A program made the translations under genes and the position numbers. 64,000 bases of DNA, from positions 68,671 to 132,670 of the forward strand of contig CAYXYK010000003.1 in the NCBI GenBank assembly GCA_964469335.1, given 5' to 3'. Shown piece by piece: positions 62,430 through 64,000 of the stretch. The notes below the pieces were generated by a model. It was not told the DNA's origin and searched no databases. It worked only from the letters and a program-made list of their open reading frames with translations. The stretch is from an uncultured Candidatus Saccharibacteria bacterium. GTDB lineage: Bacteria; Patescibacteriota; Minisyncoccia; Phycocordibacterales; UBA6899. Position 1 is the stretch's first letter, and each line of letters starts with the position of its first letter.

Positions 62430-62504
62430 ATCGGTTGAGGCTAATTTGTAATAGTCGCTTAGTATACAAAGTGATGGTGAGCGTGAGATGAGTGTGAATG
62501 AAGG

Positions 62505-62540
62505 TGAAATGAAACCGCCCACACGAAGGTGGGCGGGGTT
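62505..62540 (-). terminator. Intrinsic terminator (minus strand)
   Basis: On the minus strand: AACCCCGCCCACC-TTCGT-GTGGGCGG followed by TTTCATTTCA. Confidence 0.6.
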
Positions 62541-62559
62541 CGGCCGGGGGGCCAGTGGG

Positions 62560-62781
62560 TCAGCGCGGCGCGCGGCTGTGCGTGCGGCGTTCGCGATTGC
62601 GACGACGCTTGGCAGCGACTTCGCAGATGATCCCGAACAGGACCGCGATCGGCATCGCGTAGACGAAGTAGACGCCGCCGGCGATGTTGTTGTGAACGCA
62701 GTACAGGCTGCCGAACACCAGTGCGACGAACACCCAGATGGCGATGACTGCGCCGCGGGTGAGTTTGGAATCATTGTCCAT
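62560..62781 (-). CDS. Small two-TM protein with Arg-rich C-terminal tail (hypothetical)
   Basis: 73 aa (MDNDSKLTRGAVIAIWVFVALVFGSLY...MPIAVLFGIICEVAAKRRRNRERR); SD GGAG 6 nt upstream; own promoter. Confidence 0.45.
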   Translation of the reverse strand: MDNDSKLTRGAVIAIWVFVALVFGSLYCVHNNIAGGVYFVYAMPIAVLFGIICEVAAKRRRNRERRTHSRAPR

Positions 62782-62818
62782 CGAGGTCTCCTTCAAAGAG
62801 CGGTTGAACGATGGGTAA

Positions 62819-62848
62819 ATGATAGCATAAAAATATATATTTGTCAAA
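62819..62848 (-). promoter_or_regulatory. Sigma70-type promoter TTGACA-N18-TATCAT (minus strand) driving the small TM protein
   Basis: The minus strand reads TTGACAAATATATATTTTTATGCTATCAT. Confidence 0.55.
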
Positions 62849-62861
62849 CATATGGAGCAGT

Positions 62862-62905
62862 AAAAAACCGCTGCATTCGGCCATGGATTGGCGCTTCGGC
62901 AGCGG
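62862..62905 (-). terminator. Intrinsic terminator directly after the RT stop codon (minus strand)
   Basis: CCGCTGC ... GCAGCGG stem followed by TTTTTT on the minus strand. Confidence 0.6.
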
Positions 62906-64000
62906 TTAACGTTGTTTTCTTTTTTTCTTGTAGTCCTTGCGGTACGGTTCCGACACGCGTTCGAATTCCTTGCACAAGGCGAAGGTCTTCGCATCGGTGC
63001 GGGTAGGAGCGATCACTTGTTTGTAATAGTGAAGAAACTCTGCGATGATGCCGCGGATCACCTCGGGCGAATCGTTCCACAGCTCCTTGGTAAGGTAGCT
63101 TTGGATGATGCCATGGATGCGGCGACGTTTCTTCTGCGGGAAGACCAATACCGCTTGTCTCGCTTCGCTGCGTTCATCCGAGTCCTCACGCATTCCGACC
63201 TTGGTCACGAACACCGTTCCCATGTGACGAGAGCGAACCGTGCTCTTTCGGTGATTTACTGCGAATCCGGCATCAGCGATGAACTGGCGTATCTCTTGGC
63301 GCATGAAGAACGGGATCGGGATGCCGCGCGAGAATACCAGATCGTCGACATAGCGGGTGTATGTCACGGTGCGCTCGGGTGCCTTGCGGTCGAGCTTCTT
63401 GAAGAAGAACGTGCGTAGGCGCGAGTCGAGGAACACTTCACAGTACAGGTTCAGCAGCATCGGGGAGAGCGGCCCTCCGACCGCGAGTCCTTTGCCGTGC
63501 ATCCCGCCGAATGCGAATGCGACGAAACTTTGCATGCGTGGGAAAAGCGGGTCAGAGCGGAGCGCGAAGTGCGCAAGCTCATTGCGGGCAAACTGGTCTA
63601 CGGAATAGAAGACGCCGTACTCCTCATGGCGGAAGATGAAGGTGAGGAGGAGCGACAGCCGTTCAAGATCGACGGAAGGATACGCATGAGCGAAGTCGGT
63701 GGTGTAGAAGAATTCACCTTGCGTATGCTTCTCCGAGTTCTTCATCGGGTTCGACTTCTTCACACAGCCGGTCGCGGAGGGGAGGATGCGCAGCCACTTG
63801 CCGTCGTCTCCCATCGCTTCGAGCTGGTGACGCAGGAACGTTTCGAACAAGTGATGCAGTTTGCGCATCGCACCATTCGGGTGTCCTATCAATCTGCGCT
63901 TGCCGCGCAGTTTGTTGGGGGGCTTCACTCCCTTTTTCTCTTTCGGGTCACCCCATCTGAAATTGAAATCAGGCACACCGCTCACTTCCGAGAGCAGTGT
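62906..64000 (-). CDS. Reverse transcriptase, retron-type/standalone bacterial RT (N-terminus runs off the window)
   Basis: RT motif A (YTTDFAHAYPSVD), motif B' (GLAVGGPLSPMLLNLY), motif C (YTRYVDDLVFS); a retron-like NxxKS...FVTKVG region follows YVDD; the frame is open to the window edge. Confidence 0.78.
   Translation of the reverse strand, partial: TLLSEVSGVPDFNFRWGDPKEKKGVKPPNKLRGKRRLIGHPNGAMRKLHHLFETFLRHQLEAMGDDGKWLRILPSATGCVKKSNPMKNSEKHTQGEFFYTTDFAHAYPSVDLERLSLLLTFIFRHEEYGVFYSVDQFARNELAHFALRSDPLFPRMQSFVAFAFGGMHGKGLAVGGPLSPMLLNLYCEVFLDSRLRTFFFKKLDRKAPERTVTYTRYVDDLVFSRGIPIPFFMRQEIRQFIADAGFAVNHRKSTVRSRHMGTVFVTKVGMREDSDERSEARQAVLVFPQKKRRRIHGIIQSYLTKELWNDSPEVIRGIIAEFLHYYKQVIAPTRTDAKTFALCKEFERVSEPYRKDYKKKRKQR

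Follow-up and report, generated by a model that had tools for sequence, protein, structure and literature searches.

Does a 73-residue membrane protein encoded directly behind a reverse transcriptase (RT) act together with this enzyme, or is it only its neighbor? The question is raised by one end of a 64,000-nucleotide stretch of DNA from an uncultured Candidatus Saccharibacteria bacterium; the whole stretch is called the window here. The small open reading frame (ORF), with two predicted transmembrane (TM) helices, stands last in a block ordered as a DUF5680-like gene on the opposite strand, a structured non-coding RNA (ncRNA), a retron-like RT and the small two-TM gene. The features of this block that fall within the window are as follows.

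62906..64000, minus strand: retron-like RT, of which the 3' 364 codons and the stop are in the window
62862..62905, minus strand: intrinsic terminator of the RT unit, CCGCTGC (62905-62899)...GCAGCGG (62874-62868), then TTTTTT
62819..62847, minus strand: promoter of the small gene, near-consensus sigma-70-type, TTGACA, 17 nt, TGcTATCAT (extended -10)
62782..62818, minus strand: conserved 5' leader of the small gene, TTTACCCATCGTTCAACCGCTCTTTGAAGGAGACCTCG, including the Shine-Dalgarno sequence
62781..62560, minus strand: small two-TM ORF, 73 amino acids and stop
~62751-62695, minus strand: predicted TM1 of the small protein, from hydropathy and AlphaFold helices
~62694-62674, minus strand: predicted short outer loop of the small protein, between TM1 and TM2
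~62673-62611, minus strand: predicted TM2 of the small protein, from hydropathy and AlphaFold helices
62610-62563, minus strand: Arg-rich tail of the small protein, predicted to be cytoplasmic by the positive-inside rule
62505..62536, minus strand: intrinsic terminator of the small gene, CCGCCCAC-loop-GTGGGCGG, then a T-rich tail

The RT gene runs past the end of the window (64000) by ~20 N-terminal codons, and the ncRNA is located beyond them; full-length relatives of the RT have 384-385 amino acids. The RT matches Pfam RVT_1 (7.6e-11). Its best PADLOC models are the retron RT_outgroup (6e-17) and RT_other, with RT_VI and RT_III-A also at the top, and its best NCBIfam match is retron_St85_RT, at 60.8 bits against a cutoff of 235. 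A profile of the RT family compared with the PDB retrieved the RTs of the retrons Ec78/St85, Ec86, Ec83 and Ec67 at 1e-11 to 1e-8 (Ec78/St85 at 1e-11), ahead of group II intron RTs. The catalytic YVDD and the N(A/S)xxH motif are present, and the retron 'VTG' reads VTK..G. Retron RTs are the best matches everywhere, all of them weak. A closest relationship to retron RTs is supported by these matches, by which the window RT is placed as a retron-like outgroup and not as a member of a typed clade.

A second retron-like element is seen in the relatives, where the 300-550 nt located 5' of the RT are non-coding and highly conserved. They contain a structured ncRNA of 300-400 nt, closed by a covarying long-range helix. 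This ncRNA was observed in the relatives only, and its presence in the window genome is deduced from L002 (RT 92% identical) and others. The longest inverted repeat is found at the homologous place in 16 loci, at RT identities from 92% down to ~36% (L028), with arms 260-410 nt apart. The sequences of these arms differ, yet they stay complementary (GCCGGGAAGC, GCTGGGGAGC, GCCAGGAAG, GCCAAGGGGGC, CGCCAGGAAGGC). An anchored alignment of 15 of the 16 loci gave a core of 10 bp that is 100% paired and carries double compensatory changes at six positions, compared with only 29-51% pairing in slid controls. The 5' arm is surrounded by a 5-bp GGATY/RATCC pairing, and the ncRNA of L002 folds with a z of -7.9. 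A search of Rfam with the ncRNA returned no family. An upstream, same-strand structured ncRNA closed by inverted repeats (a1/a2), which is a retron feature, is thus found in the relatives. Judged by its covariation and position, the ncRNA-RT pair is retron-style, and the production of msDNA, which in retrons is branched and primed from the 2'-OH of a conserved guanosine, may at most be predicted from it.

The RT and the small gene are separated by 124 nt, counted from the RT stop (TAA, 62908-62906) to the ATG. The spacer has a shared architecture, made of a compensating RT terminator, a promoter of the pattern TTGACA-17-TGCTAyyAT and a near-invariant leader. Pairing of the terminator stem is held via double changes in L007, L037 and L012, the compensatory variants in relatives being CCGCTCTAC/GTAGAGCGG, CCGCTCCAC/GTGGAGCGG and CCGCTGACA/TGTCAGCGG. 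The promoter consists of TTGACA (62847-62842), a 17-nt spacer and TATCAT (62824-62819) with the TG of an extended -10, and 11 of 12 consensus positions are matched; transcription is predicted to start ~7 nt past TATCAT. Only one site of the form TTGACA-N(12-16)-TGnTAnnAT occurs in the 64-kb window, where 0.05 are expected, and it is this promoter. All ten aligned loci agree in the -35 element and in the TGCTA of the extended -10, while TATCAT is changed to TACCAT or TACTAT in three of them. The Shine-Dalgarno sequence AAGGAG is located at 62793-62788. Behind the ORF, the terminator hairpin (62536-62515) has eight pairs, seven of them G-C, followed by a T-rich run, and it is kept in all loci that extend that far. 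Because a conserved intrinsic terminator is followed by a separate near-consensus promoter, the small gene is not co-transcribed with the RT. Its transcriptional autonomy is supported by these signals, and it is expressed separately and probably strongly.

Most of this layout had been described in an initial annotation of the DNA, which placed the gene about 125 bp past the RT behind a terminator hairpin, saw a GGAG 6 nt from the ATG and assigned the gene its own terminator (62505-62540); all three points are borne out. Its promoter, TTGACA-N18-TATCAT, is right in both hexamers, but the spacer has 17 nt and not 18. The antisense sRNA that it proposed to look for on the plus strand found no counterpart: the region 62500-62900 holds no plus-strand promoter-like site overlapping the small gene, and therefore no antisense RNA is indicated.

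The small protein (MDNDSKLTRGAVIAIWVFVALVFGSLYCVHNNIAGGVYFVYAMPIAVLFGIICEVAAKRRRNRERRTHSRAPR) shows the two hydrophobic helices and the basic tail that had been noticed from the letters. Kyte-Doolittle hydropathy gives two hydrophobic segments (residues ~5-31 and ~33-58), and AlphaFold, run with an alignment of seven sequences, predicts helices at 3-32 and 39-68 with low confidence (pLDDT 63). The last 17 residues (57-73) contain nine K/R versus one D/E, and the Arg-rich tail peptide reads KRRRNRERRTHSRAPR. Based on hydropathy, the AlphaFold helices and the positive-inside rule, the protein would form a helical hairpin in the inner membrane, with a short N-terminus and the Arg-rich C-terminal tail in the cytoplasm and a loop of 6-7 residues outside.

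Relatives of this protein are rare. Six were found among ~5.8 billion protein clusters (68-95% identity), a seventh (P0127, 38% identity) when a profile was compared exhaustively with 1.84 billion representatives, and P0138 and P0139 in another profile search. Only about ten alleles are present in ~15 billion proteins, and all matches are these alleles. The ORF is 72-73 codons long in most of them, except in P0139, a database entry of 87 amino acids with an N-terminal extension ahead of an internal MDN start. Eight aligned alleles share the invariant residues R9, G10, S25-L26-Y27, E54 and E64-R65-R66; both hydrophobic blocks are shared by most alleles, and the hydrophobic pattern persists together with an RERRxxSR motif. 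Pairwise dN/dS among seven alleles is 0.12-0.7, and the third codon position is the most variable (31/20/43 variable columns at positions 1/2/3). By its dN/dS, the small gene is under purifying selection, and on the evidence of its conserved frame and pattern the ORF is a genuine orphan protein gene. Only noise was obtained when the protein and its divergent alleles were compared with Pfam, PHROG, PADLOC and NCBIfam models (for PHROG, E ~0.06), and no family can be assigned. Protein-pattern scans of viral_contigs and metagenome_contigs gave no relatives, and there is no paralogue within the window. GC3 is 82% in the small ORF and 71% in the RT, against 55-66% in the other genes.

The linkage to the RT is constant wherever it can be followed. 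The initial annotation had proposed to look for co-occurring pairs of RT and two-TM genes on related contigs, and within the clade the answer is positive: every contig that reaches far enough upstream (window, L002, L003, L005-L011, L036-L040 and L047) shows the RT 3' end ~127 nt off. This adjacency spans about ten alleles and at least three different downstream contexts, namely DUF1059 in the window, L002 and L047, then Peptidase_S51, DUF4332 and BacA in L006-L008, and DUF218 directly in L038. Past the DUF5680-like gene at the other end, Peptidase_S51 is found in L002 and DUF3135 in L006 and L008, and Peptidase_S51 lies left of the block in L002 and right of it in L006-L008. The outer flanks differ on both sides and the block is constant, so the DUF5680-like gene, ncRNA, RT and two-TM gene travel together. 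The RT can be found without the small gene, as in L012, which is nested in the clade; the small gene was never seen without the RT. Such an asymmetry is expected if the small protein were a toxin and the RT complex its antidote.

The RT family extends far beyond this clade. Over 150 clusters of relatives were found across Patescibacteria, under the annotations Patescibacteria, Saccharibacteria, Moraniibacteriota, Parcubacteria, Kaiserbacteria and Minisyncoccota, and the family of RT and ncRNA is ancient. Five loci with RT identities of 46-70% share the order RNase R (minus), ncRNA-RT (plus), SMC (minus), and in three of the five BacA is found further on. The ATPase beside the RT in distant relatives was considered as a Septu/PtuA-like retron effector; this was rejected, as NCBIfam SMC_prok_B identifies the ATPase at 477-488 bits as the chromosomal SMC. 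Eighteen other RT loci, these five included, were inspected for a small TM ORF that follows the RT and has a Shine-Dalgarno sequence, and neither a homologous nor an analogous cassette was found. The RT-ncRNA is present in these 18 loci without the small gene, so the RT works without the small protein. In L012, the RT terminator is kept, the small gene is absent and BacA follows directly; the RT of this locus is 85-86% identical to those of L006 and L007, closer than L007 is to the window (79%). By this distribution, the small gene is a lineage-specific addition that was lost at least once. As the RTs of its narrow clade share 78% identity or more, the null expectation is that the two genes are adjacent by descent. 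A full-text search of the literature found no description of this Patescibacteria RT-ncRNA. The surrounding result may matter more than the small gene itself: retron-like RTs accompanied by a conserved, covarying ncRNA occur widely in Patescibacteria, often between housekeeping genes.

This Patescibacteria-wide and usually effector-less RT-ncRNA in housekeeping synteny is one of the two more surprising results, and the sharp replacement of alleles in the small ORF is the other. L047 is a near-clone of the window genome, with a nucleotide identity of mostly 98-100% over 6.8 kb and a few short dips to 92-96%. The DUF1059 and cupin proteins are 100% identical, ThrRS 98.8% and the RT 95.8%, against 38% for the small protein. 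A valley of divergence extends from ~63200 to 62540 in a 99-100% identical background. Within it, identity is 79-83% at the RT 3' end, 94% over the promoter and leader and, in 100-nt windows, ~49-63% over the ORF, and from the small-gene terminator onward both sequences are 100% identical. The limits of the replaced allele are set by the start codon at one end and the terminator at the other. In ungapped register the two ORFs are 47% identical in nucleotides, with no base bias and equal divergence at all codon positions, which indicates that the L047 allele is old or fast-diverged and not a product of adenine-directed mutagenesis. Mosaics were also seen: L036 has the flanks and the ORF 3' end of L002, with which they are identical, and an L007-like 5' two-thirds, and P0138 joins the N-half of P0005 to a P0139-like C-half. 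In most other pairs of alleles, the small protein and the RT C-terminus diverge at similar rates. Given the replacement and the mosaics, the ORF acts as a cassette that recombines while its regulatory arms are conserved, and genes involved in conflict show such a pattern more typically than housekeeping peptides do.

What does the small protein do beside the RT? We tentatively favor, at somewhat less than even chances, a role as an accessory membrane effector or partner, added by one genus-level lineage of Patescibacteria to an older, otherwise effector-less RT-ncRNA module. The initial annotation had called the adjacency to the RT suggestive of an effector. That suggestion is strengthened by the retron-like RT, the covarying ncRNA in the relatives and the adjacency in all loci that reach the RT, with the block intact despite its changing outer flanks. 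The protein is found nowhere else, the valley in L047 covers the RT 3' end together with the ORF, the alleles are mosaic and GC3 is raised in both genes. Precedents for an RT with a two-TM protein exist in the type IV retron Ec48 and in UG17/DRT10 with SLATT. The same suggestion is weakened by the separate transcription, the 18 RT loci without a small TM gene, the loss in L012, the narrowness of the clade and the missing homology to any known effector, with no PADLOC, Pfam, PHROG or NCBIfam match. A strong constitutive promoter would also be an odd choice for a toxin. We only infer a physical or functional coupling to the RT, a toxicity of the small protein and a binding of nucleic acid by its tail.

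If an effector, the small protein might work as follows. Its polybasic tail would be bound and held inactive by a ribonucleoprotein made of the RT with the ncRNA or cDNA. Once the RT complex is disturbed, for example by a phage, the hairpins would oligomerise and leak or depolarise the membrane, resulting in abortive infection, and the recurrent allele swapping would represent a conflict-driven diversification. Retron effectors are held in check by RT-msDNA (Millman et al.), and the neutralisation of the tail by an RT-made complex is modelled on this restraint, together with established knowledge. We consider it unlikely, if worth stating, that a vertically inherited and normally effector-less Patescibacteria RT-ncRNA captured the 73-residue hairpin protein in one lineage as a separately transcribed, rapidly allele-swapping effector with an Arg-rich tail sequestered by RT-made nucleic acid. 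Such an effector would be, to our knowledge, smaller than any described for retrons, and would give a first clue to the function of effector-less retron-like RTs in ultra-small bacterial symbionts. A real coupling would extend the theme of an RT with a two-TM effector, known from type IV retrons and DRT10, to a new RT lineage and a new host group, the candidate phyla radiation, with a minimal effector under its own promoter. The locus would then also be small enough for convenient experiments, with ~350 nt of ncRNA, 385 amino acids of RT and a 73-residue peptide, on the restraint of a membrane toxin by an RT-nucleic acid complex.

The closest of the known systems is the type IV retron Retron-Eco6/Ec48, composed of an ncRNA, an RT and a two-TM effector whose TM helices lie within residues 3-85 (Millman et al.). 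Both have a retron-type RT, an ncRNA 5' of it whose inverted repeats form a closing long-range helix, and a two-TM protein encoded directly 3' of the RT in the same orientation. Unlike in type IV retrons, the window RT does not have RT_IV (Mestre clade 3) among its best 25 PADLOC matches. The Ec48 effector is larger, whereas the window protein has 73 amino acids and no extra domain. The Ec48 effector gene abuts or overlaps the RT gene; in the window, 124 nt with a terminator and a promoter lie between. No match to the type IV effector (cluster 826_1) was obtained in PADLOC at E up to 1, the divergent alleles included, assuming that PADLOC has a model for it. Membership in the type IV retrons was rejected on RT clade, effector homology and gene abutment, and the likeness would be one of working only. 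UG17/DRT10 and other UG/Abi RTs are paired with SLATT two-TM proteins that are presumed to be toxic, and the window locus resembles these pairs in having an RT beside a small two-TM membrane protein. In contrast to them, the window RT is nearer to retron than to UG/Abi models, and four alleles scanned at E up to 10 gave no match to SLATT or any other Pfam family. The locus is best labelled a variant of the theme of an RT with a two-TM protein, with an unproven functional link.

Nearly as likely as an effector is an unrelated orphan, a small membrane protein with a structural or regulatory role independent of the RT, whose gene arose or was inserted after the RT terminator in the ancestor of the narrow lineage and was kept there by descent of the gene order. 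Promoter and terminator are the gene's own, none of the wider relatives of the RT is accompanied by it, L012 lost it and retained the RT, the RT resides in housekeeping synteny elsewhere, and most pairs of alleles keep pace with the RT C-terminus. Descent of the gene order accounts less well for an adjacency that survived rearrangements on both sides of the block, and for a gene that is never found elsewhere among ~15 billion proteins. Mosaics, and a swapped allele of 38% identity between strains that are otherwise 99-100% identical, would also be unusual for a housekeeping membrane peptide. Without a real coupling, the locus would hold an ordinary lineage-specific orphan membrane peptide with unusually mosaic alleles.

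An autonomous toxic membrane peptide, similar to a type I toxin or a pinholin and controlled at the RNA level by its conserved leader with no involvement of the RT, is improbable. The initial annotation had brought up both type I toxins and holin-like proteins. Class II holins and pinholins, such as S21 of phage 21, are proteins of 65-95 amino acids with two TM helices, cytoplasmic N- and C-termini and a strongly basic tail at the C-terminus. The small protein resembles them in size, in its two TM helices, in its probable N-in/C-in topology and in its charged C-terminal tail, a resemblance of features and not of homology. The context is not that of a phage, however: the small gene is flanked by the RT and a DUF1059 gene, no endolysin, spanin or lysis cassette is nearby, the protein has no dual-start motif, and neither a PHROG family nor relatives on viral contigs were found, so holin or pinholin membership was rejected. 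Type I toxins such as Hok and TisB usually have one TM helix and fewer than 60 amino acids. The window protein is likewise a small hydrophobic peptide, and the conserved leader of its gene could cover the ribosome-binding site, but at 73 amino acids and with two TM helices it exceeds them. Minimum free energy folds do show a CUCUU-AAGGAG hairpin with a stem over the AUG in three of seven alleles and the anti-Shine-Dalgarno hairpin alone in a fourth, and the leader is conserved more than the ORF. Compared with shuffled sequences, these leaders fold no better (z -0.9 to +1.3), and a masking hairpin that is missing from about half of the alleles was rejected. Type I toxin-antitoxin membership was also rejected, as the defining antisense partner is missing, with no promoter-like site for it on the plus strand. 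A conserved internal antisense promoter is unlikely, because the alleles show no conservation of DNA sequence inside the ORF. Neither idea of the initial annotation is borne out.

Still less credence is due to the notion that the small ORF is a target of RT-driven rewriting, in which the neighboring RT would copy the transcript of the ORF, or some other template, and the copy would return to the locus, giving a hypervariable cassette with the transcript ends as its borders. The variable tract does lie beside an RT with its limits at the start codon and the terminator, and diversity-generating retroelements (DGRs) make up ~80% of the RTs in the candidate phyla radiation according to a review. 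Against this, no template repeat is shared between the ncRNA or RT region and the ORF, the differences in L047 are free of adenine bias and equal at all codon positions, with 47% identity amounting to saturation, the RT is retron-like and not DGR-like, and the mosaics resemble ordinary homologous recombination between pre-existing alleles. A DGR target was rejected on all three counts of template/variable repeat pair, adenine-specific differences and DGR-clade RT.

That the ORF is incidental and the conserved element an RNA or regulatory region is scarcely credible: promoter and leader are conserved more than the ORF, but most alleles keep 72-73 codons, among them one of only 47% nucleotide identity. 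The dN/dS values stay under 1, the alleles retain the hydrophobic pattern and the RERRxxSR motif, and a strong Shine-Dalgarno sequence stands at the correct spacing. Within the leader, the core TTTACmCATCGTTCAACyGCTCTTT is near-invariant among alleles with 38-95% protein identity, and the Shine-Dalgarno and spacer bases ahead of the ATG vary between alleles. A 19-nt complementarity between the leader and an RT-internal segment was dropped, as it is not conserved in the window sequence. The leader 19-mer occurs once in the window. When metagenome_contigs were scanned with the conserved -10/leader 19-mer, 11 matches were obtained, all by chance; at one of them, L050, a similar promoter is located ahead of a different small ORF.

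The reverse transcriptase (RT) of the window belongs to a widespread group: retron-like RTs with a conserved ncRNA of ~300-400 nt upstream are found widely among the Patescibacteria. The loci, including those on other contigs carrying relatives (L-numbers), are:
window 62906-64000, RT on the minus strand, the locus continuing beyond the window end
L002:8322-8680, RT-ncRNA locus
L007:338-675, RT-ncRNA locus
L042:5511-5880, RT-ncRNA locus
L014:3538-3890, RT-ncRNA locus
L021:3560-3872, RT-ncRNA locus; others were also found

The ncRNA contains a covarying long-range helix as well as a GGATY/RATCC pairing, and its conserved 5' domain reads CATAGTAAGCC...GGTATGGTGGCAGGTAGGGAG...CATAGCGCAAGCTATG. 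No matching family is present in Rfam, and full-text literature searches returned no description of it.

In five distant loci (L013, L014, L015, L042 and L045; RT identity of 46-70%), the gene order RNase R(-), ncRNA-RT(+), short SMC(-) is conserved. The SMC protein is ~750 aa long, and BacA is encoded further along in three of them. No effector gene is evident at the RT-ncRNA locus in any of the five. This housekeeping synteny suggests that the RT-ncRNA has been inherited vertically there, rather than as part of a mobile defence island.

The small two-TM gene is carried by two sub-lineages, those of L002 and L006. Upstream of the ncRNA-RT, they encode:
L002:7677-8192, minus strand, DUF5680-like gene (171-175 aa)
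L006:7660-8187, minus strand, DUF5680-like gene (171-175 aa)
L002:4447-6875, Peptidase_S24 region upstream of the block

The DUF5680-like gene, for which PADLOC gave no match, is divergently oriented in both sub-lineages despite their differing outer flanks, and may form part of the same block as the ncRNA-RT and the small gene. Both lineages also have a Peptidase_S24 gene (LexA or phage-repressor-like) upstream of the block, oriented towards a run of small unannotated ORFs, which may be the remnant of a mobile-element or SOS cassette near the RT locus.

On the other side, the next gene downstream of the small gene encodes a DUF1059-like protein:
window 62429-62199, minus strand, DUF1059-like gene (76 aa; Pfam E = 5.6e-4, just under the cutoff)

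The protein is 100% identical in the near-clone strain L047, and other genes take its place in the L007 lineage.

In the small gene, conservation is higher across the leader than across the ORF:
window 62782-62818, minus strand, leader
L050:60-170, reverse strand of Ga0315270_10241359, very similar promoter on an unrelated metagenome contig

One segment of the small gene's leader, AACCGCTCT, is similar in sequence to the terminator's 5' arm at the end of the RT gene (AACCGCTGC) and could thus, judging by sequence, pair with the 3' arm in a read-through RNA. A predicted leader fold masking the Shine-Dalgarno of the small gene was not significant. The promoter and early transcribed sequence of L050 are very similar (TTGACA...TGCTACTATTTACCCATCG...AAGGAGG-ATG) and precede a different short ORF, a hint that these bacteria may use part of the conserved leader as a generic signal for strong expression.

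A candidate ORF runs antisense to the region that extends from the 3' end of the RT through the spacer into the small gene:
window 62488-63006, plus strand, antisense ORF (172 aa)

Over the small ORF, this frame is open in all seven alleles examined, probably due to GC-rich codon bias. Finally, two Logan contigs from different samples both break within the RT terminator:
L001 start, corresponding to window about 62869
start of L004, 79 nt ahead of the small ORF

These breaks are compatible with strain-level sequence heterogeneity beginning at the RT 3' end.
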